From an uncultured Bacteroidales bacterium (GTDB lineage Bacteria; Bacteroidota; Bacteroidia; Bacteroidales; GWA2-32-17), in contig CAYSIN010000001.1 of the NCBI GenBank assembly GCA_964431135.1, forward strand, positions 5,096 to 69,095: a stretch of DNA of 64,000 nucleotides. Reading direction: 5' to 3'. Within the stretch, counting starts at the first letter, position 1, and every line of letters starts with the position of its first letter. The notes under the pieces are model-generated. The model was not told the DNA's origin and did not search any database. It saw only the letters and a program-made list of their open reading frames with translations. Both the position numbers and the translations under genes were made by a program. Shown piece by piece: positions 7,626 through 58,714 of this stretch.

Positions 7626-9215
7626 CTATCTTTTTTTTGATAATGAAATAGCCATTTTTACTGCTTTTTCAGCATTAACAATTCCACCGGTTTTGGAAAG
7701 TTTTGTAAAAGGTATCCGTTTATTATATTCAGATTTAGAAGGAAGTAAAACACGAATTTTATAAATATTAACGGAAGAAAGAATAATATTACGTATTTCG
7801 GATGATGTGAGTTCAGGGAAATAGGACATTAGTAAGGCGGCAATGCCTGTAACCACAGGACATGAGGCGCTTGTGCCATTAGATGCACGAAAACTGTTAT
7901 GAAGTCCAGTAGAAAAAATTTTGACACCGGGAGCAAATACATCCACCGTTTTTTTTCCGTAATTGCTAAACGGAGCAGCCAGATTTTCGTCCACCTTAAT
8001 TCCTGATGCCCCTACATCTATCCATCGTTTAGTCAGAAGTTTGTTATTAATTCCTACAGGACTTGGGAAATGTGGAATTTTATCATTGTTGTTAGATTCG
8101 TTACCTGCTGCATGAATAAAGATAACACCCTTACTTTCGGCATAAGTTATGGCGTCATCTACCATATTTTTTTCGGGTGAATATTGTTTTCCAAAACTCA
8201 TGTTCAGGATTTTTGCACCATTATTAACAGCATATTTAATGGCATTGGCAACATCCTTATCACGTTCATCACCACCGGGGACAATGCGTAAAATCATTAT
8301 TTGAACACAATCGGCAATGCCAAAGGCATTATTTCCATTGTGTCGGTCGGCAGCAATAATTCCTGCTGTAAATGTCCCGTGATTGCATGATGGTCCCATA
8401 ATATCATTATTCCCGTATATTGAATCATTTATATTGAAAGGATTATCGCCAACTATATATCGTGCATCAAAATCAGGATTTAATTCGGTCTTTAATTTTT
8501 TTTCTGTAACAAGAGCCGCATTTTTTATTTGAGCAAGTTCATATCCTGCCTTTTTTGATTGATAATATCGTGAGGCAAAAGTTTTAATCGTGTCGTTTTG
8601 GCATGTGAGCAATGGTTTTAATTTTGATTCGGTAAGCGTATCGGTATGTAAATATTGCTTCAGTGCATTTTCCATACGCGTAACATTTTTAATAACTATA
8701 GTATAATAGGTCAATTCTTCGTTGGCTTCTTTTACACGGTTTTGATAATCATTTCTTATTCTGATGTACAAATCAAACTCCTTTTTATCATTCCCTTTCA
8801 AATGAAGTGTATCAATGTTGTTAAATTTTTTAAACATTCGGCTATACATGCGTGTTACTTCCAGCGATTCGGCATCAATGTTTTGTCCTTTGGCATTACC
8901 TAAGAAATTCCAGCCATGCACGTCATCTATAAAACCATTATGGTCATCGTCTTTTCCATTGGCAGGAATTTCGTTTGGGTTCTGCCACAAAAAATGTTTA
9001 ATATCTTCATTGGTAGTATCTACACCACTATCAAGAATAGCCACAATTACAGGTTTAGGTTTTCTGTCTTTTAATAAAGTATAAGCCTTATGAAGGCTAA
9101 TACCCGCATAGCCATCATCAGTATAATCTTGAAAATGCCAGTTTTGTTGTCCGAAAGAACAAATAGAGCCTATCATCAAGGTTATAAGCATTAACTTTTT
9201 CATCATCTTCGTCAT
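7626..9215 (-). CDS. Subtilisin-family (S8) serine peptidase, secreted
   Basis: Catalytic triad motifs VAILDSGVD, HGTFTAGIIAA, GTSASCPVVTG. The track start 9239 is TTG. The first ATG at 9215 (MTKMMKKLMLITL... signal peptide) lies 11 nt downstream of a near-consensus box TAACTTTA (9227-9234). Confidence 0.85.
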   Translation of the reverse strand: MTKMMKKLMLITLMIGSICSFGQQNWHFQDYTDDGYAGISLHKAYTLLKDRKPKPVIVAILDSGVDTTNEDIKHFLWQNPNEIPANGKDDDHNGFIDDVHGWNFLGNAKGQNIDAESLEVTRMYSRMFKKFNNIDTLHLKGNDKKEFDLYIRIRNDYQNRVKEANEELTYYTIVIKNVTRMENALKQYLHTDTLTESKLKPLLTCQNDTIKTFASRYYQSKKAGYELAQIKNAALVTEKKLKTELNPDFDARYIVGDNPFNINDSIYGNNDIMGPSCNHGTFTAGIIAADRHNGNNAFGIADCVQIMILRIVPGGDERDKDVANAIKYAVNNGAKILNMSFGKQYSPEKNMVDDAITYAESKGVIFIHAAGNESNNNDKIPHFPSPVGINNKLLTKRWIDVGASGIKVDENLAAPFSNYGKKTVDVFAPGVKIFSTGLHNSFRASNGTSASCPVVTGIAALLMSYFPELTSSEIRNIILSSVNIYKIRVLLPSKSEYNKRIPFTKLSKTGGIVNAEKAVKMAISLSKKR

Positions 9216-9311: not shown

Positions 9312-9381
9312 TAATACCAAACCGCTAACCAAAGCACACTAACAAAATTCATTTCATTTTTTTGTTAGCGGTTTGGTATTA
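9312..9381. mobile_element. MITE-like element with perfect 18-bp terminal inverted repeats
   Basis: TAATACCAAACCGCTAAC (9312-9329) and its exact reverse complement GTTAGCGGTTTGGTATTA (9364-9381). The 66-bp core is flanked by TA on both sides. The interior is related to copies at 32251-32270 and 46809-46828. Confidence 0.55.
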
Positions 9382-12346: not shown

Positions 12347-15300
12347 ATGAAAAAATATTTATTTTCTATTGTACTGATATTCAGTATGTTAAATTTTTAT
12401 GGACAAGCATACCTTATCAGTTCAGGAGGAACTGTTTCTACCTGTTCGGGTTATTTTTACGATAGCGGTGGTAGCGGAGGTACATACCAGAACGATGAAA
12501 ACTATACCATGACGATATGCTCAAGTAATGGTGGGCACATTGTTGCTACATTTACTGCTTTCAATACAGAAGCAAGTTATGATTATTTATATATATATAA
12601 TGGACCGAATACAGGCAGTCCATTAATAGGTTCTTATAACGGCACTACATCACCTGGCACTATTACTTCCAGTGGAACCTGTCTTACTTTTGTGTTTACT
12701 TCTGATGTTAGTGTAATGTATGATGGATGGGCTGCAACATTATCTTGTACCACACCAGTTGCTCCAAATACACAGGATTGTGCAGGGGCAATACCATTAT
12801 GCTTTTCTACTTATTCCACTACTGCTTCTTATTCTGGTCAGGGAAATTTCCCAACTGAAATTCCAACACATTTACCATATTCAGACGACATGTGTCCCGG
12901 CAATTGTTTACTGGCAGGAGAACTTAACGATGTTTGGTACACATTTACCGTTCAAACTTCTGGAACACTTACATTTCAGATTACTCCCAATAGTAGCGGT
13001 GATGATTATGATTGGGCGGTATATAATTTAACCAATGCCGAATGTGCAGATATTTATTCGAACCCAAGTTTGCAGGTAAGTTGTAATTTTTGCGGTGTAC
13101 CAGGAGCGACAGGTCCTACCGGTGGAGGTTCTTCTTCGTGTATGTATGGCGACCCGGCTTATTGTACAACTTACAATTCTGCTATTAGTGTAACTGCTGG
13201 ACAAACATACGTGGTTAATGTAAGTAATTTCAGTTCAACACAAAATGGATATAGTATTACTTTTGGAGGTACGGCTCAAGTAGTGGACAATACAGGTCCA
13301 TATTTGTACAATGTTGTTCAATCGCCGGCATGTGGACAAAATCAGGTTATCATTCGTTTCAGTGAAAATGTGTCATGCACTACGGTGCAGGCATCCGATT
13401 TTACTATCAGCGGTCCAGGTGGACCCTATACCGTTACATCTGTGAGTGGTGCTATTTGTGCTGCTGGGGGCAGTTACGAAAGAGATTATGTATTAACAGT
13501 AAGCCCTGCTTTTGTACAAGGAGGAACCTATACTATTAGTTTAGTAAGTAATTCTGTTTCTGATATATGTTCACATCCAACCGGTGGGCAAAATTTGACC
13601 TTCAGCGTTACCGGTGTAACTGCTTCGGCTTCGGTAGTAAGTAATGTTTCATGTTATGGTGGAAATAATGGCTCTGCAACGGCAAGCGGTTCAGGCGGCA
13701 CTTCTCCATATTCTTACTCATGGAGCAATGGTTCTACGTTGGCAAATCCAACCGGTTTGGCTGCAGGAACTTATACCGTTACGGTAAGAGATGCCAATGG
13801 CGTTTGTAATGCAACGGCACAAATCACAATAACACAACCTACAATACTTGCCGCTACCATTAGTTCTTCACCTGTTTTATGTAATGGTGGAAGTACCGGT
13901 TCTGCAAGCGTAAGTCCTTCTGGCGGAACGTCTCCTTATTCATATTTATGGAGTAACAGTTCCACCGCATCTTCTATTTCCGGTTTATCACAAGGAACTT
14001 ATTCTGTTACAATAACTGATAATAAGGGTTGCACTTTGGTAAAAAGTACCACAGTATCTCAACCAACAGCGTTATCTGTTTCAACATCTCAGACAAATGT
14101 GAGTTGCAATGGAGGGAATAACGGCAGTGCAACTGTTTCGGTAAGTGGAGGCACTCCCTTATATTCATACACATGGAGTAACGGTCAATCAACAGCAACA
14201 GCATCAGGTTTAACGTCGGGCACATACACCGTTACAATTCGTGATGCCAATAGTTGTTCAACAACGCGTACTTTCACTATTACACAGCCCGCTACTTTGA
14301 CTTCTTCCATTGCCTCGCAAACAAATGTTTCCTGTTTTGGTGGCTCAACAGGCTCTGCAACAGTAACACAAAGCGGTGGCACTTCTCCTTATAATTATAC
14401 ATGGTCCAATAGTCAAACCACACAAACTGCTACAGGATTAACAGCCGGTACTTATACTGTTACTGTTAGAGATGCCAATAATTGTACTTCTATTTCGTTG
14501 GTAACAATCTCGCAACCAACTGCGGTGAGTGTTGGCATTTCGGGTTCAAATGTAACCTGTAACGGTAGCAGTACAGGAAGCGCTACTGCAAATCCTACTG
14601 GTGGAACGCCAACCTATACCTATTTATGGTCCAACAGTCAAACATCGCAAACCATTTCGGGACTTGCTGCCGGTACTTATACGGTTACAGTCCATGATAT
14701 CAATAATTGTTCGGCTGTAAACAGCATAACCATAACACAACCATCAACATTAACTTCTTCCATTTCATCACAAACAAATGTAAGTTGTAACGGTGGCAAT
14801 AATGGAACGGCAACCGTAACAGGAAGTGGTGGTACACCTTCTTATACTTACACCTGGTCTAATAGTCAAACATCACAAACAGCCACAGGATTGTCTTCGG
14901 GAACTTACTATGTTACTGTAAAGGACACTCATAATTGTACTTCGGTATCGTCTGTTACCATTACGCAACCCGCAGCACTGTCCGTAAGCATGACAAAGAC
15001 TAATGTTGCTTGTAATGGTGGAAGTACAGGCAGTGCAACAGCAACACCAACAGGCGGAACACCGGGCTATTCTTATCAATGGACTGGTGGACAAACAACA
15101 CAAACTATTTCAGGATTGTCAGCAGGAACTTATTATGTTACGGTGAGAGATGCCAACAATTGTTCACAAGTAAATTCTATTTCCATAACACAGCCAACTG
15201 CTGTAAGTGCCAGCATTTCATCTTCCACTAATGTAAGTTGTAATGGCGGTAATAATGGAACGGCAACAGTAAATGCAACAGGTGGTACACCGTCCTATAC

Positions 15301-18300
15301 TTATAATTGGTCAAACAGTCAAACTACGGCTACTGCTACTAGTCTGGCAGCAGGAACATATAATGTAACCGTATATGATGCGAACAATTGCACTTCTACT
15401 ACTTCAGTAAGTATTACCCAACCGGCTGTTTTAAATGCAACGTTATCTTCTACTAATACCAGTTGCTATGGTGGTTCAAATGGAAGTGCCACAGCAACAC
15501 CCACAGGAGGTACCGGCCCTTATACTTATTTATGGGTTCCTGGCGGACAAACAGGTTCAACAGCAACGAATTTAAGTGCAGGTACCTATAATGTAACTAT
15601 TACTGATATTAAAGGATGTACAAAAACAGGCTCTGTAACGGTATCACAACCAGCATCTCTGACACTTACTATGAGCAAAACAGATGCTACTTGTGGTAAC
15701 AGTAACGGAAGTGCTTCTGTTTCGGTAAGTGGAGGGACACCTTCTTATTCATATTTATGGTCTAACAGTGCTACTACAATTTCTATAACCAATGTACCTG
15801 CTGGTACTTATTCAGTAACCGTAACTGACAGTCATAGTTGTACCAATGTAAATAACGTGGCAGTAAATAATTCCGGTGCTCCGGTTGTAACCGTAAATTC
15901 AGTTACAAATGTTACTTGTAACGGTGGCTCAACTGGTGGAGCCAGTATTTCTGCCAGTGGTGGAACACCATCTTATTCGTATCACTGGTCTAATGGTGCA
16001 ACAACAACATCCATATCTAATGTAGCAGCAGGAACTTATTCTATTACTGTAACCGATGCATTGACATGTATAGGTACGGCTTCAGTAACTATTACTCAAC
16101 CGTCAGCAGTAGTAGCAACTATTACAAGTAATATCAGTCCATTGTGCAATGGTGCTTCCAATGGAAGTGCTACGGTAAGCGCTTCCGGTGGAACACCCGG
16201 ATATAATTATCAATGGTCTAATGGACAAACAACTGTAACTGCTATAAATTTGGCAGCGGGCACATACAGTGTTACAGTTAAGGATACCCATAATTGTACA
16301 ACAACAACTTCCGTAACTGTCACTCAACCAACTGTTGTTACCTCATCCATCACTTCATCATCCAATGTTAGTTGCAATGGAGGTGCTAATGGTAGTGCAA
16401 CTGCTTCTGGAAGTGGTGGTACACCTGGTTATACCTATGGATGGTCCAGCGGCGCTAGTTCGGCTACAGCATCGGGATTAAGTGCAGGCACTTATTATGT
16501 TACTGTAAAAGATGTCAACAATTGTTCTTCAATATCTTCTGTAACTATATCGCAACCTGCGGCACTAACTTCCACTTTCAACACAACCAACGTAAATTGC
16601 AATGGTGGTTCGAATGGCTCATTAACTGTTAATCCAACAGGTGGGACATCACCTTATACCTATTCGTGGTCAAACAGTCAAACAACACAAACCATTAACG
16701 GACTGATAGCAGGTACATATTCTGTTACCATTACTGATAGTCATAGTTGTACCATGGTCAACAGTGCAACTGTTACTCAACCCACCACGTTAACTTCTTC
16801 CATTACTGCTCAAACCAACGTATCATGTAATGGCGGAAACAATGGAAGTGCTACGGTAACAGCCACGGGAGGAACAACAAATTATTCCTATCTATGGTCT
16901 AACAGTGCAACTACAAGTTCTATAACGAATGTTACTGCTGGTACTTATTCTGTGACGGTAACCGATGCGCACTTGTGCACCAATACTTCTTCGGTTACTA
17001 TTACACAGCCATCAGTAATTACTGCAACAACGTCTGGAACAAGTGTTCTTTGCAACGGTGGAAATACAGGAACGGCTTCTGTTGCTGCCAGTGGAGGAAC
17101 ACCGGGATATACCTATCTTTGGTCAACTACTGCAACCACTTCATCCATTAGTGGATTAGCGGCAGGTACTTATTCCGTCACCATTCGCGATGCTAACAAT
17201 TGTTCCAAAATTGCAACCTATACCGTAACTCAACCTGCTGTATTAACTGCTACCATATCATCATCAACACAAGTTTCATGTTATGGAGGAAACAATGGTG
17301 CAGCAACAGTTAGTGTATCAGGTGGAACTACAGCATATTCATATTTATGGTCATCGGGACAAACAACGGCTATGGTTAATGGATTGGTTGCCGGAACCTA
17401 TACCGTAACAGTTAGAGATGCCAACAATTGTTCTACAACGGCTAATGTTACCATCAATCAACCAACTCAACTTATATCTACCATGGGAATTCCTACTAAT
17501 GTTTCGTGTAATGGTGGAAATAACGGAACTGTTACTGTTACAGCATCAGGAGGAAGCCCAACGTATTCGTACCTTTGGTCGAATGGGCAAACTGCAGCAA
17601 CAGCCTCCAATTTAACTGCAAATTCGTATTCAGTCACCATAACCGATTCTCATAGTTGCACTTCAACGGCAAGTGTTACCATAACGCAACCGGCTGTTTT
17701 AACTTCCAGTATTTCTGCTTCAAACCAAGTAACATGCTTTGGAACAGCAACAGGTTCTGCAACTGTAACACAAAGCGGTGGCACATCACCTTATTCTTAC
17801 TTATGGTCAAATAGTCAAACGACTCAAACAGCGACGGGCTTAACAGCGGGAAATTATACAGTAACCATTACTGATAATAAAGGCTGTACAACCACAAGTT
17901 CTGTTACAATAACACAACCGTCGGCACTCTCTGCCAGCATTAATTCTTCCACAAATGTATTGTGTAATGGTGGGAACAATGGTTCTGCATCGGTTAGTGT
18001 TACAGGAGGAACACCTGCGTATGTTTACAGTTGGACTACAGGGCAATCAAGTTCATCTATTACGGGGCTTACTGCCGGGAACTATACGGTAACAGTTACA
18101 GATAATAACAGTTGTACAAGTATTGCCAATGTAACCATTACTCAACCTACTGTTATTTCAATAACTATGAATTCTGTTAATGTATCCTGCCATGGTGGAA
18201 ACAATGGTTCTGCAACAGCATCGGTTTCTGGTGGTACACCTGCATATACATATATCTGGTTGCCTGGTGGAGCGGTTACATCATCTATTAACGGACTTTC

Positions 18301-21300
18301 TGCAGGGACTTATACTGTAACGGTAACTGATGATAATGGCTGTACAAAGGCTTCCGTTGTAAATATTACTGAACCTACTGCCATGACGGTTAATCCAACC
18401 GTTGCGGATGCTACTTGTGGCAATTCAAATGGAACAGCAAGCGTTACAGTTAGCGGCGGAGTTAATCCTTATTCTTATCACTGGTCAACGGGCGCAACTA
18501 CCGCATCTATTTCAGGTATTCCCGCAGGAAATTATGGCATTACTGTGAGCGATGCCAATAGTTGCAGTACCATATCTACTGTTTCCATTAATAATACAGG
18601 TGCACCTACCATTACGGTAGATAATGTAACACCTGTTGTTTGCTTTGGTGGCAGTAGTGGTTCCATATCCATTTCTGTTACAGGCGGAAGTCCAAGTTAT
18701 ACTTACAGTTGGTCTAATGGCGCAGATAGCACTTATTTGACTGGACTTACAGCAAACAATTACTCCGTCACAGTAACCGACAGTATAGGATGTCAGGCAA
18801 CGCAAAATATTACGATAACTCAACCAACGGCCATCAATGCTTCTATTATATCCGTACTGCCTCCATCATGCTATGGTTATTCTAATGGTTCTGCTTCGGC
18901 AGTAGCATCAGGTGGAACACCTTCTTATTTTTATTCGTGGTCAAATGGTGCCAATACGGCTAATGTTAATAATTTATCAGCAGGAAACTACACCGTAACT
19001 GTTACCGATTCACATGGTTGTACGACAACCGCTTCTACCAGTGTTTCTCAACCAGCAGGTATGTCTGCCATGTTGGTTTCTCAAACGAATGTTTCCTGTC
19101 ATGGAGGTAACGATGGTGCTGCTACCATTTCCGTTTCGGGTGGTACATCACCTTATACCTATTCATGGAATAATGGTTCTACATCAGCGTCTATTAGCAA
19201 TTTGATAGCAGGCAGTTATACGGTTACCATTACGGATAATAATATGTGTACGATTTCTTCCGGTGCTTCTATTATTGAACCACAAGCCATCAACATTAAT
19301 GTACCTATTTTAAATAATGTTACCTGTAATGGTTTAAGTAATGGTGCGGCATCTGTTAATGTTACAGGTGGAACCTTGCCTTATGGATATCAGTGGTCAA
19401 ACGGTTCAACTATAAATAGTATTACCAATGTGCCTGCTGGTACTTATGATTTAACTGTAACCGATGGACATTTATGTACATCAACTACCCAAATTACCAT
19501 AACAGAACCATCATCTATAATGTCCACTGTTACGCAAACAGCATCGATTAGTTGCTTTGGCGGTAATAATGGTGCAGCAACGGTCAGTGCATCAGGTGGA
19601 ATAAACCCTTATGGTTACCACTGGTCAACCAATCAAAGTACGCCAACCATTTCCAATTTAAGTGCAGGAACCTATTTCATTACGGTTAACGATTTGAACG
19701 GTTGTACCAAAGTGGACAGTATTGTTATCGTTCAGCCCACTGAAATCGTATTATCCTTTGCCGATGATTCGGTACTTTGTTATGGTGCAGTCAATGGAAA
19801 TATTGATTTGACTGTTAACGGTGGTACACCTTCTTATACATATCTTTGGAGCAATAATCAATTAAGTGAAGATATAACAGGTTTGGCGGCAGGCACTTAT
19901 ACTGTTACGGTTCACGATGCTAATCATTGTCCTATGATATCTTCTACAACTATTTATGAACCTCCAGTTTTGACCAATACCTTCAACATGATAAATTCAC
20001 ATTGCAATCTGTCAGATGGAAGTTTGCAAACCAGCGTTTCAGGCGGTGTTGGTCCTTATACTTATTTATGGGATGCACAAGCCAATGGACAAACAACATC
20101 TACTGCCATTAATTTAAGTGCTGGCACTTATTCTGTTTCGGTACACGATAGTCATGGCTGCCTGTCTGTATTTACAGGCAGTGTGTCGGATATTAATGCA
20201 CCACAACTTTCATTTAATATTGTGCAATTACCTAATTGTAATGGCGATTCTACCGGTAAAGTTTATTCAACGGTGCAAGGTGGTACTAATCCTGTTTCAC
20301 TATTATGGTCAAATGGAGTTACCGCTGATTCTATTGTGAATGTACCTGCTGGTATTTATTATTTAACGGCAACCGATGGTGCAGGTTGTATTACAATTGA
20401 TTCTGTTACAGTTACGCAACCCAATGTGTTGGCATTTAATATTGATGATGTTGTTTCACCAAGTTGTTTTGGACTTACCAATGGTTCTATTCATCTGCAT
20501 GCTGAAGGAGGTACTTTACCATATACTTATACATGGCAGGATGACCAGGGAACATCTCTTGGCAACAATTCATCCATAACAAATGTTGGCGTTGGCAATT
20601 ATTTTGTTACTGTAGTCGATTCGCATGGTTGTAGCACAATGTTAAATCTTAGTTTATCGCAGCCATCCTTATTAGTTGCAGATACGATAAGTCATATCTC
20701 TCCACTGTGTGCCAACAGCAATGATGGAATGGCTAATGTACAGGTTTCTGGTGGTACTACTCCTTATACTTATATTTGGAATGATGCTTTGCATACGCAA
20801 AATGATACATTAAGTAATGTAGATGGGAATCATTTCTATTATGTAACTGTAACTGATGCCAATGGCTGTACCATTATTGATTCAGTCTATATTACTGCAC
20901 CTGCTCCAGTCAATGCTATTGCTTCAGGATTTTCAGCCAATTGTAATTCACAAAATGGCTGGGCATACGTTCAGGCAAGTGGTGGAACATTACCTTATAC
21001 CTATTTATGGTCCACAGGTGCAAATACTGATACGGTACAAGGTTTATCCAGCGGAAATTATCATGTAACTGTTTACGACAGTCATGCATGCTCTGCAATT
21101 CAAACGGTTCAAATTACCAATCTGCCGGCTGGCAATATTGTAGTTGATTCTATTCAGGATGTTTCATGTTATGGTGAATCATCAGGCAATATTAGTATAA
21201 GCGTGAATGGTGGCACAGCACCTTATTCATATTTATGGAGTAATGGGAGTACTTCATCCTCTTTATCAGGTGTGGTTGCCGGACAATACTCTGTAACCGT

Positions 21301-22303
21301 TACCGATGTTAACCATTGTACAGACGATACTGTTTTGCAAATCACACAACCTCCGATATTGCTTGTGGATGCTGCTGTTCAAAATATTACATGTAATGGA
21401 TTGCAAAATGGCAGTATTGTATTGACCGTAAATGGCGGTGTAAGTCCTTTCAGTTATATATGGAATACAGGTTTTTTAACACCTTCCATTAACAATTTGA
21501 CAGCAGGAACTTATACGGTTACGATTACCGATTCTCATCATTGCACGGTCATTTATCAGCATAACATTACAGAACCTGCACCGTTGCAGGTAAATACTTC
21601 AGGTACAAATCCGTTGTGCTATAATGGCAACGATGGTGCTATACATGCTACTCTCATAGGCGGAACACCACCGTATTCGTATGCATGGTCAACGGGAGAG
21701 ACGACTCAAGACATTCAAGGATTGACGGCAGGTTCTTATCAGGTTACCATAACCGACAGCAATCTCTGTGTTGTTACAGCCGTAGCGATTATTGCCAATC
21801 CTCTACCCATGCAAACCACGGCAACACAAAGTCAAGACCCTGTCAACAATTTAGGGAATGTGCAATTAACTACTATTGGTGGCACCCTGCCTTATTCCTA
21901 TTCATGGTCTAATGGTGCACAATCAAGCAACGTTAGCGATTTGGTTGCCGGTACTTACTATGTAACCATTTCGGATGCCAATAACTGCATGATGATTGAC
22001 ACCTTTATTGTTGACATACAACTCGTTATTCCATCAGTTATAACACCTAATGAAGATGGGAAAAATGATGCATTTGAAATATTAGGTATTGGCGGATATA
22101 ACCAAGTTGATATTGAAATATACAATCGCTGGGGCGATTTATTGTTTAGTTATTCCGGTTCTGGTATGGACTATACCGATGTTACGAAACAATGGGATGG
22201 CAAATTCAACGGAAAAAAATTACCCATGGGACCTTACTTGTATGTTATTAAAATAAGTGATATTAAAGACCCTATTACAGGTACCATTACCATAAAATAT
22301 TAA
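12347..22303 (+). CDS. Giant SprB-repeat cell-surface adhesin-like protein with T9SS type-B (gliding-motility-associated) C-terminal domain
   Basis: 3318 aa with a signal peptide. CUB-like N-terminal domain (YFYDSGGSGGTYQNDENY...YLYIYNG...DGWAATLSC). 37 consecutive ~76-aa SprB repeats (C.GG.NGSA....GGT.PY.Y.WSNG.T......L.AGTY.VTV.D...C). C-terminus IPSVITPNEDGKNDAFEI...IYNRWGDLLF...WDGKFNGKKLPMGPYLYVIK matches the type-B sorting domain pattern. Confidence 0.92.
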   Translation: MKKYLFSIVLIFSMLNFYGQAYLISSGGTVSTCSGYFYDSGGSGGTYQNDENYTMTICSSNGGHIVATFTAFNTEASYDYLYIYNGPNTGSPLIGSYNGTTSPGTITSSGTCLTFVFTSDVSVMYDGWAATLSCTTPVAPNTQDCAGAIPLCFSTYSTTASYSGQGNFPTEIPTHLPYSDDMCPGNCLLAGELNDVWYTFTVQTSGTLTFQITPNSSGDDYDWAVYNLTNAECADIYSNPSLQVSCNFCGVPGATGPTGGGSSSCMYGDPAYCTTYNSAISVTAGQTYVVNVSNFSSTQNGYSITFGGTAQVVDNTGPYLYNVVQSPACGQNQVIIRFSENVSCTTVQASDFTISGPGGPYTVTSVSGAICAAGGSYERDYVLTVSPAFVQGGTYTISLVSNSVSDICSHPTGGQNLTFSVTGVTASASVVSNVSCYGGNNGSATASGSGGTSPYSYSWSNGSTLANPTGLAAGTYTVTVRDANGVCNATAQITITQPTILAATISSSPVLCNGGSTGSASVSPSGGTSPYSYLWSNSSTASSISGLSQGTYSVTITDNKGCTLVKSTTVSQPTALSVSTSQTNVSCNGGNNGSATVSVSGGTPLYSYTWSNGQSTATASGLTSGTYTVTIRDANSCSTTRTFTITQPATLTSSIASQTNVSCFGGSTGSATVTQSGGTSPYNYTWSNSQTTQTATGLTAGTYTVTVRDANNCTSISLVTISQPTAVSVGISGSNVTCNGSSTGSATANPTGGTPTYTYLWSNSQTSQTISGLAAGTYTVTVHDINNCSAVNSITITQPSTLTSSISSQTNVSCNGGNNGTATVTGSGGTPSYTYTWSNSQTSQTATGLSSGTYYVTVKDTHNCTSVSSVTITQPAALSVSMTKTNVACNGGSTGSATATPTGGTPGYSYQWTGGQTTQTISGLSAGTYYVTVRDANNCSQVNSISITQPTAVSASISSSTNVSCNGGNNGTATVNATGGTPSYTYNWSNSQTTATATSLAAGTYNVTVYDANNCTSTTSVSITQPAVLNATLSSTNTSCYGGSNGSATATPTGGTGPYTYLWVPGGQTGSTATNLSAGTYNVTITDIKGCTKTGSVTVSQPASLTLTMSKTDATCGNSNGSASVSVSGGTPSYSYLWSNSATTISITNVPAGTYSVTVTDSHSCTNVNNVAVNNSGAPVVTVNSVTNVTCNGGSTGGASISASGGTPSYSYHWSNGATTTSISNVAAGTYSITVTDALTCIGTASVTITQPSAVVATITSNISPLCNGASNGSATVSASGGTPGYNYQWSNGQTTVTAINLAAGTYSVTVKDTHNCTTTTSVTVTQPTVVTSSITSSSNVSCNGGANGSATASGSGGTPGYTYGWSSGASSATASGLSAGTYYVTVKDVNNCSSISSVTISQPAALTSTFNTTNVNCNGGSNGSLTVNPTGGTSPYTYSWSNSQTTQTINGLIAGTYSVTITDSHSCTMVNSATVTQPTTLTSSITAQTNVSCNGGNNGSATVTATGGTTNYSYLWSNSATTSSITNVTAGTYSVTVTDAHLCTNTSSVTITQPSVITATTSGTSVLCNGGNTGTASVAASGGTPGYTYLWSTTATTSSISGLAAGTYSVTIRDANNCSKIATYTVTQPAVLTATISSSTQVSCYGGNNGAATVSVSGGTTAYSYLWSSGQTTAMVNGLVAGTYTVTVRDANNCSTTANVTINQPTQLISTMGIPTNVSCNGGNNGTVTVTASGGSPTYSYLWSNGQTAATASNLTANSYSVTITDSHSCTSTASVTITQPAVLTSSISASNQVTCFGTATGSATVTQSGGTSPYSYLWSNSQTTQTATGLTAGNYTVTITDNKGCTTTSSVTITQPSALSASINSSTNVLCNGGNNGSASVSVTGGTPAYVYSWTTGQSSSSITGLTAGNYTVTVTDNNSCTSIANVTITQPTVISITMNSVNVSCHGGNNGSATASVSGGTPAYTYIWLPGGAVTSSINGLSAGTYTVTVTDDNGCTKASVVNITEPTAMTVNPTVADATCGNSNGTASVTVSGGVNPYSYHWSTGATTASISGIPAGNYGITVSDANSCSTISTVSINNTGAPTITVDNVTPVVCFGGSSGSISISVTGGSPSYTYSWSNGADSTYLTGLTANNYSVTVTDSIGCQATQNITITQPTAINASIISVLPPSCYGYSNGSASAVASGGTPSYFYSWSNGANTANVNNLSAGNYTVTVTDSHGCTTTASTSVSQPAGMSAMLVSQTNVSCHGGNDGAATISVSGGTSPYTYSWNNGSTSASISNLIAGSYTVTITDNNMCTISSGASIIEPQAININVPILNNVTCNGLSNGAASVNVTGGTLPYGYQWSNGSTINSITNVPAGTYDLTVTDGHLCTSTTQITITEPSSIMSTVTQTASISCFGGNNGAATVSASGGINPYGYHWSTNQSTPTISNLSAGTYFITVNDLNGCTKVDSIVIVQPTEIVLSFADDSVLCYGAVNGNIDLTVNGGTPSYTYLWSNNQLSEDITGLAAGTYTVTVHDANHCPMISSTTIYEPPVLTNTFNMINSHCNLSDGSLQTSVSGGVGPYTYLWDAQANGQTTSTAINLSAGTYSVSVHDSHGCLSVFTGSVSDINAPQLSFNIVQLPNCNGDSTGKVYSTVQGGTNPVSLLWSNGVTADSIVNVPAGIYYLTATDGAGCITIDSVTVTQPNVLAFNIDDVVSPSCFGLTNGSIHLHAEGGTLPYTYTWQDDQGTSLGNNSSITNVGVGNYFVTVVDSHGCSTMLNLSLSQPSLLVADTISHISPLCANSNDGMANVQVSGGTTPYTYIWNDALHTQNDTLSNVDGNHFYYVTVTDANGCTIIDSVYITAPAPVNAIASGFSANCNSQNGWAYVQASGGTLPYTYLWSTGANTDTVQGLSSGNYHVTVYDSHACSAIQTVQITNLPAGNIVVDSIQDVSCYGESSGNISISVNGGTAPYSYLWSNGSTSSSLSGVVAGQYSVTVTDVNHCTDDTVLQITQPPILLVDAAVQNITCNGLQNGSIVLTVNGGVSPFSYIWNTGFLTPSINNLTAGTYTVTITDSHHCTVIYQHNITEPAPLQVNTSGTNPLCYNGNDGAIHATLIGGTPPYSYAWSTGETTQDIQGLTAGSYQVTITDSNLCVVTAVAIIANPLPMQTTATQSQDPVNNLGNVQLTTIGGTLPYSYSWSNGAQSSNVSDLVAGTYYVTISDANNCMMIDTFIVDIQLVIPSVITPNEDGKNDAFEILGIGGYNQVDIEIYNRWGDLLFSYSGSGMDYTDVTKQWDGKFNGKKLPMGPYLYVIKISDIKDPITGTITIKY
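13620..22020 (+). repeat. Tandem array of 37 SprB-repeat coding units (~225-230 bp each)
   Basis: Counted from the protein by the recurrent PY.Y.W ... AGTY.VTV.D..C signature. Units are diverged at synonymous sites, so this is not a recent amplification. Confidence 0.9.
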
Positions 22304-30242: not shown

Positions 30243-32141
30243 ATGACTAAGAACGAATATAGTATATTATCAACCATTAATTCTCCCGCTGACATTAAAA
30301 AATTAAGCCAACAAGATTTATTGACGTTGGCAAAAGATGTTCGCAAATATATCATTGATGTTATTTCAAGTCATCCCGGACATTTAGGTGCCAGCCTAGG
30401 TGTAGTAGAGTTAACCATTGCATTGCATTATGTTTTTAATACACCCTATGACCGCATTATTTGGGATGTAGGGCATCAATCTTATGCGCATAAAATATTG
30501 ACGGGACGACGTGACAATTTTGATACGCTTCGTAAAAAGGGCGGCATTAGTGGTTTTCCAACACCCAAAGAAAGCGAATACGATGCGTTTGGCGTAGGAC
30601 ACTCATCTACTTCGGTATCGGCAGCCTTGGGTATGGCTATCGCCGATAAACTTCAACATGTTACTGACAGAAACATTATTGCCGTTATAGGTGATGGTAG
30701 CATGACGGCAGGTATGGCATTTGAAGCTATTAACAATGCCGGCGTTTCCAAAGCCAATATTATTGTTGTATTAAACGACAACAAGATGTCGATTAATCCA
30801 AATGTGGGCGCTATCAGTGAATACCTGCTTGATATAGCGACTTCCAAAACATACAATAAGGTGAAGGATGAAGTATGGCGTTTTTTGGACCGTATGGAAA
30901 TAGCACAAAAAGCAGTACAGAAAGTAGATAATGCCATAAAAAGTATGGTACTTCATCACAGCAATTTATTCGAAGCATTGGGTTTTAGATATTTTGGACC
31001 AACCGATGGGCACGATTTGCTTTATTTGACCAAAGTACTTGAAGATTTAAAAAAATTTCCTGGTCCAAAGTTGTTGCACATTATTACACAAAAAGGAAAG
31101 GGATTTAAACAGGCAGAACTCGACCAGATTACGTTTCATGCACCCGGAAAATTTGACCGAGAAACAGGAGAAATTATCATTGAAAAAAAAGAAAATGAAA
31201 CATATCCATTGTATCAAGATGTATTTGGATATACTTTAACCGAACTGGCACAAAGCAATGATAAAATTGTCGGTATAACTCCAGCCATGCTAACGGGCTG
31301 TTCGATGAATATTTTTAAACAACATTTTCCCGAACGAACGTTTGATGTGGGAATAGCCGAACAACATGCCGTTACTTTTTCTGCTGGCTTAGCAAAAGCC
31401 GGTATGAAGCCTTTTTGTAATATTTATTCTTCATTCATGCAACGTGCCTACGACCAAACAATTCACGATGTTGCCATTCAAAATCTACCTGTGGTTTTCT
31501 GTCTTGACCGCAGCGGATTGGTGGGTGAAGATGGCATTACTCATCAAGGGATTTATGATTTGGCATATTTACGATGTATTCCCAATCTTATTATCTCAGC
31601 ACCTAAAGATGAAATTGAACTTCGAAATTTGATGTTTACGGCGGCAAATTTCCCATCTCCGTTTGTCATTCGCTATCCACGCGGAAAAGGTATTCATTCA
31701 CGCTGGCAACTACCTTTTGAAACTATTTCGGTTGGAAAGGGAGAAAAAATTTTAGACGGAAAGGATGTCGCTGTGTTAGCCATTGGATTGCCTGTAAACT
31801 TTGCATTAAAGGCTGCAACAATACTTCACGATAAAGGAATCAACATTGGTCTTTACAATATGCGATTTGTCAAACCATTGGACAATGAATTATTGCATGA
31901 AGCCTGTCAACATTATCAGTATTTAATTACGGTTGAAGATGGGGTATTGGCAGGTGGTTTTGGCAGTGCCGTCCTGGAATTTATGCAAAATCATCATTAT
32001 TTTAATCCTGTTGTACGATTAGGTATTCCTGATAAGTTTATTGAACATGCATCACAATCGGAACAATATGAAGAATGCAACATCGATGCGAATACTATTG
32101 CTAACACCGTTGAAAAATTGATTTCATCCAATACCAAATAG
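30243..32141 (+). CDS. dxs: 1-deoxy-D-xylulose-5-phosphate synthase
   Basis: 632 aa. GHLGASLGVVELTIALHYVFNTPYDRIIWDVGHQSYAHKILTGRR and the TPP-binding GDGSMTAGMAFEALN region. Confidence 0.95.
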   Translation: MTKNEYSILSTINSPADIKKLSQQDLLTLAKDVRKYIIDVISSHPGHLGASLGVVELTIALHYVFNTPYDRIIWDVGHQSYAHKILTGRRDNFDTLRKKGGISGFPTPKESEYDAFGVGHSSTSVSAALGMAIADKLQHVTDRNIIAVIGDGSMTAGMAFEAINNAGVSKANIIVVLNDNKMSINPNVGAISEYLLDIATSKTYNKVKDEVWRFLDRMEIAQKAVQKVDNAIKSMVLHHSNLFEALGFRYFGPTDGHDLLYLTKVLEDLKKFPGPKLLHIITQKGKGFKQAELDQITFHAPGKFDRETGEIIIEKKENETYPLYQDVFGYTLTELAQSNDKIVGITPAMLTGCSMNIFKQHFPERTFDVGIAEQHAVTFSAGLAKAGMKPFCNIYSSFMQRAYDQTIHDVAIQNLPVVFCLDRSGLVGEDGITHQGIYDLAYLRCIPNLIISAPKDEIELRNLMFTAANFPSPFVIRYPRGKGIHSRWQLPFETISVGKGEKILDGKDVAVLAIGLPVNFALKAATILHDKGINIGLYNMRFVKPLDNELLHEACQHYQYLITVEDGVLAGGFGSAVLEFMQNHHYFNPVVRLGIPDKFIEHASQSEQYEECNIDANTIANTVEKLISSNTK

Positions 32142-32234: not shown

Positions 32235-32487
32235 ATACCAGACCGCTAACAAAAGAATGAAATGAATTTTGTCCCGTCAAAAACTCTTGTTAGAGTTTGA
32301 CGGGATGCCGACAGACTAACCGTTTAACCCCGACTTAGATAAAGTTATATTTTTAGAGCAAAGAGAATAAAAATATTACCTTATCTTTGTCGCCTATGTA
32401 ATTCATGAAACTAAGTTTTATGAATTATTCGGGTTTAAAACAAAAGCGAAGCGAATTGTTTTAATGAACTGGTTAGCAATTCGGTAT
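32235..32487. repeat. Composite intergenic repeat island between convergent genes
   Basis: Terminus + interior ATACCAGACCGCTAACAAAAGAATGAAATGAATTTT (32235-32270). Hairpin module + GCCGACAGACTAACCGTTT (32271-32325). 110-bp insert (32326-32435). AAAACAAAAGCGAAGCGAATTGTTTTAATGAACTGGTTAGCAATTCGGTAT (32436-32487). Confidence 0.65.
32326..32435. mobile_element. 110-bp insertion with inverted ends nested in the composite repeat
   Basis: Absent from the otherwise collinear copy at 37322-37426. Ends AACCCCGA... / ...TTCGGGTT. Internal hairpin 32400-32426. TATCTTTG box 32382-32389. Confidence 0.45.
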
Positions 32488-32496
32488 AAAATTTTC

Positions 32497-33600
32497 CTAT
32501 TTTTTTTTATCCTGAGGAATAAAAAGATTCATTTTACAAAGTGAAATGCTGTCAAAATACAAGTTAAGACTGCCTTTTTTAAACGAAACCTGTTCCAATT
32601 TTACATGGCAACGTTGTTCATGAATATAAAGGCTTACCAATCCTTGTTTTGCTTCGATAAGATTTTCTTCCTCTTCATATAAGGTAATTAATTCTTCTGG
32701 CGATGGAATGGTGAGATTATCTTCTATAAAAAATATCTTTAATAGTTGATTGGAAGGTTCAATAGAGGTCGTATAAAAACTTTCTCGCTGCAGATAAGGT
32801 AAAAATATTTTACCATAAACATATTGACCAATGCCAACCTGTTTAAATATATAAAGTGTATCGTTTTGATAAAAGGCTTTTTCATTATAAGCAGCAGGAG
32901 CGGTTTCGCACGATTGAATTAAATTATTTGCCTGTTCGTGTATCAGTTTCTCGTGAATAGCAACGAGTGAACGTTGAGAGGCAGTATCTATTACGCCCGC
33001 AGTCGTTATGGTTTTGACAGGGGAGTGTTTAAATTTCTTTCTGTTTTTGAATGCCGTATGCAAGGCATAAAGATTAACTCCAATGCCAAAGTTGGGCAAA
33101 ATATACCAGTCTTTGTTATAACAGGGATGCGTACTTTTATTAAAAATCAACATGCCAGGGTCTATGGAAACTCCCAGTTCGACATTAAACAATTCTTCCC
33201 GTATCTCCAGTCCTAAAAGAAAGGCTGTACCATATACGGTTGAATGATAAGAATCAGTGCCGATATCGGGATGATAATAATTATTAAGCCATCCGGTGTA
33301 TATGCCACTGTATAATTGCCAACTTCCCTGTTTGCGAAAGTAATAATATCGTAAACATGCACCCGTATTATATGATGCATCCACATCATGGTCGTAAATA
33401 TATTGTGACCCCTGATATCCGCCATCCAGGGCTATACTGAAATGATTCCTTCGATATTCAACATTAACGCCCCAACCCCCGTAAACAATACCCTGCCCAA
33501 TTTTTACATTAACATAACGGTTATATAAAAATTGAGCCTCGCTCTTCGTTATCATTCCGAAAAACAATACTATAAAAATTTGTATTATCTTTTTTTTCAT
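32497..33600 (-). CDS. Secreted protein of unknown function (Tyr/Gly-rich beta-barrel-like N-half plus unknown C-half)
   Basis: 367 aa with a signal peptide (MKKKIIQIFIVLFFGMITKSEA). Alternating aromatic/Gly strands in residues ~25-190. Its start overlaps the kinase stop (ATGA). Confidence 0.6.
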   Translation of the reverse strand: MKKKIIQIFIVLFFGMITKSEAQFLYNRYVNVKIGQGIVYGGWGVNVEYRRNHFSIALDGGYQGSQYIYDHDVDASYNTGACLRYYYFRKQGSWQLYSGIYTGWLNNYYHPDIGTDSYHSTVYGTAFLLGLEIREELFNVELGVSIDPGMLIFNKSTHPCYNKDWYILPNFGIGVNLYALHTAFKNRKKFKHSPVKTITTAGVIDTASQRSLVAIHEKLIHEQANNLIQSCETAPAAYNEKAFYQNDTLYIFKQVGIGQYVYGKIFLPYLQRESFYTTSIEPSNQLLKIFFIEDNLTIPSPEELITLYEEEENLIEAKQGLVSLYIHEQRCHVKLEQVSFKKGSLNLYFDSISLCKMNLFIPQDKKK

Positions 33601-37321: not shown

Positions 37322-37528
37322 ATCTCGTCAAACACAAAAAAGAGTTTGACGAGATGCCGACAGATTAACCGTTTTAAAACAAAAGCGAAGCGAATGGTTT
37401 TAATGAACTTGATAGCAAGTTGGTATTATCAAATTATATTAGGTATAAACCGAATTGAAATGCTTTACCAATTAAACATTTTTGAATGCATATCGGTATA
37501 AATTATTTTTTTGTTAGCGGTTTGGTAT
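37322..37528. repeat. Composite intergenic repeat island
   Basis: 12-bp perfect hairpin ATCTCGTCAAAC/GTTTGACGAGAT + GCCGACAGATTAACCGTTTT (37322-37375), fused to AAAACAAAAGCGAAGCGAATGGTTTTAATGAACTTGATAGCAAGTTGGTAT (37376-37426, followed by TA). Solo terminus GTTAGCGGTTTGGTAT (37513-37528). Confidence 0.65.
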
Positions 37529-46581: not shown

Positions 46582-46956
46582 ATTCGGTTTTGTTTTAATG
46601 AACTTGTTAGCAAGTCGGTATAATTACTATTTTGTAATGAGTAAAGTGAACTGCGTGAGGAACATCCCCCTTAATTCCCCCTTCAACGGGGGAGGTGTTG
46701 AGCAATAGTCCATTCCCCAAATTCCTCCCCCTTTGAAGGGGGTTTGGGGGATGTCCTATCCCATTGCACACTTCCCTATTCTTCCACACATAATACCAAA
46801 CCGCTAACAAAAGAATGAAATGAATTTCGTTGGTTTGGTTTATGCCGAATGCGAAGCACTTCGGCATCGGATTGGGTTAATGTTAATTATCACATTTACA
46901 CAACTTGTCTCGGCATCCCGTCAGAATGACGGGATGACAAGATTTTTACATTTTCT
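46582..46956. repeat. Intergenic repeat island with four different modules
   Basis: Partial MITE-like copy ending GTTAGCAAGTCGGTAT (46582-46621). 98-bp GC-rich nested palindrome (46659-46756). TA-flanked copy ATACCAAACCGCTAAC...GGTTTGGTTTA (46793-46841). 8-bp hairpin ATGCCGAA/TTCGGCAT (46842-46867). 58-bp GC hairpin module (46899-46956). Confidence 0.7.
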
Positions 46957-58136: not shown

Positions 58137-58618
58137 CATCAAACTCTGATAAGAGTTTTGAAAGGGCTATACAAGAAAATATAGAGGTTTTAAGGATAAT
58201 GAAGCAATGGAACATGGTTAATAGATACGTCATTTATACTAACCCGCTAACAAAAGCGAAGCGAATTGTTTTAATGAACTGGTTAGCAAGTCGATATTAT
58301 ATAGCAAAATTAAAATATCAAATTTAAAATATCAAATTTAAAATTTAAAAAAATAGCACACAGATTACACAGATGTAATGGATTAAAACTGATAAATAAA
58401 TATTTACAAACCTACTTCATCATTCTCACAACTTGTCTCGGCATCCCGTCAGAATGACGGGATGACAAGATTTTCACATTTTCTTTTGCGATCTTTGCGT
58501 AATATCTTTGCGTTCTTGGCGGTTTATCAGAATTCAAATTTCAGAATTAAAATTTAATACCAAACCGCTAACAAAAGCGAAGCGAATTGTTTTAATGAAC
58601 TGGTTAGCAAGTCGGTAT
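58137..58618. repeat. Largest intergenic repeat island (619-bp spacer)
   Basis: Degenerate hairpin module (58137-58165). 62-bp MITE-like copy A (58236-58297). AT-rich 14-bp tandem AAATATCAAATTTA x2 (58312-58340). CACAGATTACACAGAT (58358-58373). 58-bp GC hairpin module (58427-58484). TCTTTGCGT-rich module (58484-58524). 62-bp MITE-like copy B (58557-58618). Confidence 0.7.
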
Positions 58619-58714
58619 TAGTTGGTTTTATTGATAAACATGCTTTACAAAAAAGAAAAATTTTGTAATAGGAAATGTATTACCTTTACACGTTTTTTTG
58701 CAAAAAAAAATTGA

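Follow-up and report, generated by a model that had tools for sequence, protein, structure and literature searches.

The intergenic region between dxs (30243-32141, plus strand) and a convergent gene for a 367-aa hypothetical protein (32497-33600, minus strand) raises the question of how 110 bp came to lie between two repeat modules that are joined without a break elsewhere in the same 64-kb stretch of DNA, all of which was analysed and is called the window here. We put a probability of about 80% on the reading that these 110 bp are a copy of a MITE-type non-coding element, inserted where two older modules of an intergenic repeat meet. The split copy of the two-module repeat (site A) and the unbroken copy (site B) had been delimited in a first-pass annotation, and direct reading found both sets of coordinates to be right (Table 1). 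In a blastn-short comparison with site B, the left flank of site A gave a 34-nt match of 94% identity (E 4e-9) and the right flank a 46-nt match of 93.5% (E 6e-14), a similarity that is far above chance. One T at site B is extra to what the flanks of site A predict, and the borders of the insert are uncertain by 1-3 nt because of a T-run at the junction. Site B is flanked by a glycosyltransferase-9 gene and a TIG-domain gene in divergent orientation. The pair of filled and empty sites proposed in the annotation is real, but site B is a paralogous rather than an orthologous empty site. The insert itself occurs once in the 64-kb window, as judged by blastn-short.

Table 1. Coordinates of the split and unbroken repeats and of their parts in the window.
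Feature	Position	Strand	Remarks
Site A (filled)			module 1 = hairpin 32273-32304 and ATGCCGACAGACTAACCG 32305-32322; 110-bp insert 32326-32435; module 2 32437-32487
Site B (unbroken)	37322-37426	+	modules 1 and 2 joined at palindrome GTTTTAAAAC (37371-37380); paralogous empty site
Host repeat, left end ATACCAGACCGCTAAC	32235-32250	+	host contains everything to 32487; inverted partner 32472-32487
AACAAAAG, left copy of 8-bp direct repeat	32248-32255	+	second copy 32439-32446
Module 1 hairpin (CCCGTCAAA ... TTTGACGGG)	32273-32304	+	direct reading
Module 1 tail ATGCCGACAGACTAACCGT	32305-32323	+	94% identical to 37341-37374; runs into insertion point
TTAA left of element	32324-32327	.	putative target-site duplication, left copy
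Short-form element core (CCCCGACTTAG ... ATTATTCGGG)	32328-32433	+	106 bp = H1, H2 and right terminal repeat; lacks H0
H1, long imperfect hairpin (CGACTTAGATAAAGTTATATTTTTA ... TAAAAATATTACCTTATCTTTGTCG)	32331-32392	+	holds TATCTTTG at 32382-32389
H2, hairpin (AATTCATGAAACT / AGTTTTATGAATT)	32400-32426	+	
Right terminal inverted repeat (CCCGAATAATTCATAAA on minus)	32417-32433	-	1 mismatch to consensus CCYGNANTATTCATAAA
TTAA right of element	32435-32438	.	follows an extra T at 32434; putative target-site duplication, right copy
Module 2	32437-32487	+	ends in host right end GTTAGCAATTCGGTAT (32472-32487)

The internal anatomy of the insert was then read against that of its relatives. The core scored 143 bits with a covariance model of the element, a model that detected no diverged copy either in the window or among related loci, and the insert has a fold z of -6.4. 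The internal hairpin reported for 32400-32426 is real and has 13 pairs, including one G-T. The inverted ends of 8 bp that had been described turned out to be weak: AACCCCGA and AACCCGAA (the reverse complement of TTCGGGTT) agree at 6/8 positions without gaps, and the window copy's own ends have only CCCGA in common. These are not the true termini, since the left terminal repeat of the family, carried on a 49-bp hairpin (H0), is absent from the window. On the right, the terminal repeat is the sole match to CCYGNANTATTCATAAA in the window with at most one mismatch. Judged by these features, the 110 bp is a left-truncated form in which the right terminal repeat is kept and H0 is absent. A regular expression for further elements of the form YTAA-CC...GG-YTAA found none in the window.

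In order to find copies elsewhere, species-representative genomes were scanned with a 19-mer from the left end and metagenome contigs with an 18-mer. Three true copies were obtained from metagenome contigs, all of JGI Ga0302253: L007 (7801-7907), L009 (2199-2306), and L010 (259-368). They are 97-100% identical to the window copy, with 0-3 of 106 positions differing, on AT-rich contigs that have only repeat families in common with the window. The copies in L007 and L010 occupy the same junction of modules 1 and 2 as in the window. The arrangement in L010 is that of the window, with an internal deletion in module 1, and the order in L007 is module 1 (with a different hairpin loop), the 49-bp palindrome H0 (AACCTGCATTATTCA...TGAATAAATGCAGGTT), the element, and module 2. 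In L009, H0 and the element stand with unrelated sequence at both sides; the 106-nt cores of the window and L009 are identical except for one extra C in L009, and their flanks are unrelated. The 19-mer also led to a diverged relative in Anaerophaga thermohalophila, located between arsR and an arsC of the LMW-phosphatase type. Neither module 1 nor module 2 adjoins the copies in L009 and Anaerophaga. Directly 5' of the Anaerophaga element lies a homologous H0, and the alignment of H0 from L007 with that from Anaerophaga scored 35 against a shuffle maximum of 29 (0/2000), which is significant independently of the 19-mer used in the search. The expectation of copies beyond the window was thus borne out by three further contigs at 97-100% identity, in at least two unrelated contexts, and by a diverged copy in another genus. 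The five family members known were all reached through exact 18- or 19-mers, so that the size of the family, its spread, and the apparent conservation of its segments are biased by the search.

Other matches were set aside. A second 19-mer match, in a 'Bifidobacterium' MAG, lies in an apparent FMN-reductase gene (FNPDLDK) and was judged to be chance; the idea that the insert is a gene fragment was considered and rejected. Blastn of the short form, run in distant mode against plasmid and phage collections, returned chance AT-rich matches only, and the two long forms had no match in the plasmid collection. Scans of viral contigs gave 18 matches to a 16-mer of the element, 0 to module 2, and 87 to the consensus of the terminal repeat. 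The 18 matches look like chance, as they fall in unrelated, apparently coding sequence, and the loose inverted pairs among the terminal-repeat matches (spaced by 722 bp in four related contigs) were treated likewise, being without similarity to the element. Two side observations concern the surroundings of the copies. In Anaerophaga (L003 4216-7860) the element is part of an apparent ars cluster, with genes named from their translations, in which arsR, the element, and the LMW-PTP-type arsC are followed by a small ORF, an arsM-like methyltransferase, and an Acr3-like permease. In L009, a terminator-like hairpin AACCCCGAATTGCGTCGGGGTT followed by CTCTTTTT at 2117-2146 stands immediately upstream of the H0 copy, and has the 8-mer AACCCCGA in common with the start of the 110-bp insert, by coincidence or as a related stub.

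The relatives that retain H0 define the ends of the complete element. The long form, of about 139-156 bp, consists of H0, TTAA, H1, and H2, and is bounded by imperfect terminal inverted repeats of 18-21 nt. In L009 (element 2149-2304, 156 bp) the termini CCTGCATTATTCATAAAT and CCCGAATAATTCATAAAA match at 14/18 positions, and in Anaerophaga (L003 7353-7491, 139 bp) CCTGAACTATTCATAAAT and CCCGGATTATTCATAAAT match at 15/18, or at 17/21 when extended; binomial tails for these matches range from 1e-5 to 4e-7. Exact matches to the consensus CCYGNANTATTCATAAA are found at each end of the Anaerophaga element and, in L007 and L009, at the left end. Next to the ends defined by these repeats stand matching 4-mers, TTAA/TTAA for L009 and CTAA/CTAA for Anaerophaga, and identical flanking 4-mers have a chance of about 0.006 per event. 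In the window, L007, and L010 the left flank is TTAA and the right flank is T+TTAA, so the duplication is not clean there. A check for target-site duplication found TTAA/TTAA (L009), CTAA/CTAA (Anaerophaga), and TTAA/(T)TTAA (window, L007, L010). TTAA is a palindrome and the targets are AT-rich; the Anaerophaga copy alone can tell a directly duplicated target from inverted repeats that reach further outward. Its non-palindromic CTAA pair, a single case, would argue for direct duplication of the target over longer inverted repeats. The flanking duplication would be one of 4 bp (YTAA), and 2 bp (TA) or 5 bp would also be compatible. The reconstructed targets, GTTT-TAAAAC (window), TTTT-TAATAT (L009), and CTTC-TAAAAT (Anaerophaga), have a pattern of T-run, TAA, and A-run in common. 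As single strands, both long forms fold into three hairpins (z -8.0 and -7.7), and between the window and Anaerophaga the upper stem of H1 has one compensatory pair by RNAalifold, with two apparent by hand.

How the window copy relates to the long form can be followed at the junction. If H0 and one TTAA are taken out of L007 between its two TTAACC repeats, the exact junction of the window results. We infer that the window copy lost H0, rather than that the others gained it. This is preferred over a separate insertion of H0 because no solo H0 was seen in about 120 kb of related sequence and because the order H0-TTAA-H1-H2 is kept in Anaerophaga, where the matching flanks are found only around the whole H0-TTAA-H1-H2 unit. 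The proposed course of events is as follows. A complete element, made up of H0 (a 49-bp palindrome with the left terminal repeat as its outer arm), TTAA, H1, and H2 (with the right terminal repeat as its outer arm), would insert at an AT-rich site centred on TA (TTAA, within GTTT/TAAAAC). As the element carries no gene, its movement would depend on a transposase supplied in trans from another locus. This is probably a DDE enzyme of the cut-and-paste kind, which would bind the CCYGNANTATTCATAAA ends and cut in a staggered manner around TA/TTAA. From the window copy, H0 would have been lost afterwards, most likely by deletion between the two TTAACC repeats that bracket it. Because H0 is lost, the window copy is on its own probably a fossil, and its further spread would be possible only by travelling with the host repeat.

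Whether site A gained the 110 bp or site B lost it was judged from divergence. The copies of module 2 next to the inserts differ from one another and from site B at 3-6 of 53 positions, more than the inserts do, and for site A against L007 the difference between insert and module 2 was significant (Fisher p = 0.017); the remaining pairs were not significant. A deletion at site B would predict the reverse of this lower divergence of the insert. Since its copies are less diverged than the adjoining module, the insert would be younger than the host repeat, or is being homogenised. The reading as an insertion, not a deletion, is upheld by this lower divergence together with the terminal repeats and flanking repeats of the full-length relatives. 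A single insertion, with the host repeat later copied as a whole, may account for the three junction copies, as an alternative to three separate insertions into a favoured site. On a longer time scale, the hypothetical protein beside site A has two distant relatives, at 62% and 48% identity. The same convergent gene pair is present with the 62% relative, and its 126-nt spacer between dxs and the hypothetical gene bears no visible trace of the site A repeats; the whole 254-bp nest is therefore a probable gain in the lineage of the window.

The host into which the element went is layered as well. The first-pass annotation had called it composite: the two modules are there, but the repeat is itself nested, with module 1 placed within a 62-bp element between AACAAAAG direct repeats. 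This AACAAAAG pair brackets module 1 and the insert inside the outer element, and the simple 62-bp outer element at 58557-58618 has a single AACAAAAG at 58570-58577. The AACAAAAG layer is a second nesting, which arose either by insertion or by recombination at a common motif. With 0-2 mismatches, the 16-mer ATACCAGACCGCTAAC occurs at 9314, 46793, 58236, and 58557 on the plus strand and at 9364 and 37513 on the minus strand. Further copies of module 2 stand at 37376-37426, 58249-58299, and 58570-58620, with a partial one at 46590-46623. Module 2 and the ATACCAAACCGCTAAC ends are seen again at 9314/9364, 37513, 46590, 46793, 58236, and 58557. At site B the hairpin of module 1 (37324-37353) has the arms CTCGTCAAAC/GTTTGACGAG, in which a compensatory C-G to T-A change keeps the pairing. 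Related hairpins lie at 46908-46942 and 58436-58470, and the loop is highly variable; in L007 (about 7690-7735) it holds a nested hairpin CTCGTCAATAATGACGAG.

Several observations on these repeats were made along the way. The perfect 16-bp inverted ends ATACCAAACCGCTAAC / GTTAGCGGTTTGGTAT mark a small repeat family (9314-9379, 58236-58297, 58557-58618, 46793, 37513-37528) whose simple forms are 62-66 bp long, with interiors that differ and TA often on both sides, and which encloses site A as its outermost layer. Another repeat, about 50 nt long and containing the palindrome CATCCCGTCAGAATGACGGGATG, is found at 46900-46950 and 58428-58478; its stem and the module 1 hairpin are related but oppositely oriented. 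Site A is a layered nest, an element within a module within a 62-bp inverted-repeat element, and the relative ages of the layers can be read from their divergence. It makes a clean case of layered nesting, which is an ordinary phenomenon and leaves the current understanding of MITEs unchanged.

MITEs are defined as elements of less than about 500 bp that have terminal inverted repeats and flanking direct repeats, are AT-rich and intergenic, and form stable stem-loops (PMC10969869; PMC11602168). The window copy measures 106-110 bp and the long form 139-156 bp, which is too short for a transposase. Terminal inverted repeats are present in the long form, and the window copy keeps the right one only. 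Four copies at 97-100% identity lie on four contigs, in at least two unrelated contexts, and flanking duplications are seen in L009 and Anaerophaga. The long form is thus a MITE by definition, and the window copy is a decayed member. The transposase said to be missing from the window was indeed not detected, with none among 38 ORFs scanned against Pfam and no integrase either; no Pfam transposase was found in 10 ORFs of L007, L009, and L010, and an autonomous partner with CCYGNANTATTCATAAA ends was found neither elsewhere in the window nor in the viral contigs fetched. The earlier view of a non-autonomous mobile element agrees with its multicopy state, the unrelated flanks in L009, terminal repeats of 18-21 bp, flanking repeats of 4 bp, and the fact that no transposase was seen. 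The family seems to be undescribed, having no Rfam, plasmid, phage, or viral match.

Explanations other than transposition have to be weighed against this reading. The mosaic could have been made by recombination or gene conversion at short common motifs, with the 110 bp as a BIME- or BOX-like module that site B happens to lack. The region is indeed modular: module 2 is accompanied by module 1 at 37376 but not at 58570, short repeats (AACAAAAG and TTAACC) mark the borders between modules, one and the same position carries H0 in L007 but not in the window and L010, and three of the four close copies sit at the same junction. However, the copies in L009 and Anaerophaga lie away from the adjoining modules, and each has terminal inverted repeats and matched 4-bp flanks. 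The inserts are also more alike than the adjoining modules, a pattern that gene conversion could mimic, although it could not create flanking repeats. Modular recombination accounts for the mosaic host, but not for the terminal repeats and flanks of L009 and Anaerophaga, and we regard it as unlikely to be the origin of the insert. A recombinase of another kind than DDE is a very unlikely agent: an HUH enzyme of the IS200/IS605 type acting on single-strand hairpins, or an IS110-type enzyme acting at a TTAA core, in which case TTAA would not be a duplication. Three strong hairpins, two of them subterminal, would suit such an enzyme, and so would the imperfect T+TTAA right junction in the window. 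Repeated insertion at one position inside another repeat would be a further point in its favour, as this is typical of relatives of IS110/IS1111. Clear terminal inverted repeats with CTAA/CTAA flanks fit cut-and-paste better, though, and no gene for such an enzyme was seen nearby. The near-identical cores of the window and L009 lie in targets that have only a T-run/TTAA/A-rich context in common, which speaks against guide-based targeting.

More broadly, the unit might be a structure-dependent element that homes to the centres of palindromic junctions (GTTT/TAAAAC-like) within other repeats by means of an HUH- or IS110-type recombinase, or H1 might be a functional RNA or DNA signal retained among Bacteroidota that are only distantly related. 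We consider this quite unlikely, and keep it in view because one junction is repeatedly occupied and because the order H0-TTAA-H1-H2 is kept across genera. The first-pass annotation had also pointed to a -7-like box, and a further explanation would be that the copies are those of a cis-regulatory RNA or of a gene for a structured non-coding RNA, for which the TATCTTTG box would act as promoter. The box is there at 32382-32389, but its motif is no commoner than expected by chance and lacks conservation: shuffles predict 102.7 occurrences of TAnnTTTG in the window and 100 were counted, so one occurrence is uninformative about a promoter, and the box is mutated in L010 (TATCATTG) and Anaerophaga (AATCTTAG). 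The promoter/terminator reading of the insert was rejected, with the box count at chance and no terminator predicted. The stable, conserved fold of several hairpins, the compensatory change at one or more pairs of H1 when the window and Anaerophaga are compared, and the position of the Anaerophaga unit between arsR and arsC on the coding strand would all suit an RNA. Stable stem-loops are, however, expected of MITEs in any case (PMC10969869). The orientation of the unit is inconsistent, being on the strand of the upstream gene in the window, L010, and Anaerophaga but antisense to both neighbours in L007 and L009. Rfam gave no matches at gathering thresholds over the whole window, and only eukaryotic snoRNA/miRNA noise at both loci with E up to 10. 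Given no terminator and a box that occurs at chance and mutates, an RNA gene is highly improbable, and insertion of a MITE-type element is the reading that we retain.

Among known systems, the Correia elements of Neisseria and the RUP elements of Streptococcus pneumoniae are the closest in kind: they are non-coding, AT-rich, intergenic, about 100-160 bp long with terminal inverted repeats, and have in common with the present family a short TA-centred flanking duplication, a strong stem-loop fold, near-identical multiple copies, and mobilisation in trans. The general features of MITEs in this comparison follow PMC10969869 and PMC11602168. The likeness is one of features, with no sequence relationship claimed, and the window family differs in having shorter and less perfect terminal repeats (14-15/18), three separate hairpins rather than one long one, and a duplication that looks like YTAA, not TA. 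The host, in which short modules form a mosaic whose combinations and orientations vary, resembles BIME and BOX, but its modules have their own 16-bp inverted ends (ATACCAAACCGCTAAC), and no RAYT gene or GTAG head of the REP type was seen; a Pfam match of RAYT type (Y1 transposase) was not found among the ORFs scanned. Two further candidates were rejected. A palindrome-associated element derived from IS200/IS605 would explain the hairpins, but inverted termini and matched flanks are present too. For an integron attC site, GTTTAAC on the left fits R'' (RYYYAAC), but GTTTAAA on the right fails R' (GTTRRRY), and no integron integrase or cassette array was found among the window ORFs scanned.

MITEs are abundant in Bacteroidota, where 81,380 distinct ones were listed in 46,051 genomes, most of them genus-specific (PMC11602168), and they are known from Porphyromonas gingivalis, of the same phylum as the window (for example a minisatellite-bearing MITE, PMC4596501). 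The assignment of the window to Bacteroidota is indicated by T9SS sorting domains, DUF5683, and a 3318-aa tandem-repeat surface protein. Unlike the genus-specific MITEs, the present family is common to Anaerophaga and the window organism, which are apparently distantly related, and this presence in both suggests elements that are old or horizontally spread. With its short and imperfect termini, the family would be missed by standard MITE finders, which require terminal repeats of at least 10-15 bp at high identity. Nests of this kind break short-read assemblies and can pass for promoters or small RNAs. Two Logan contigs of SRR8476420 (L001, L002), identical to the window, stop at or near the repeats (32173, 32450, 37395), and the insert region is missing from the gene-anchored Logan contigs, which shows the nests fragmenting assemblies.

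Two other features of the window were recorded. A G/C-rich inverted-repeat element at 46658-46757 (GGAACATCCCCC...GGGGGATGTCC), with internal CCCCC/GGGGG hairpins in AT-rich surroundings, may be a further small mobile repeat. The 3318-aa ORF at 12347-22303 consists of about 40 tandem units of 225/228 nt (75-76 aa, motif GGTxPYxYxWS...GTYxVTVxD), and is presumably a repeat protein of the SprB-type gliding or adhesin kind.
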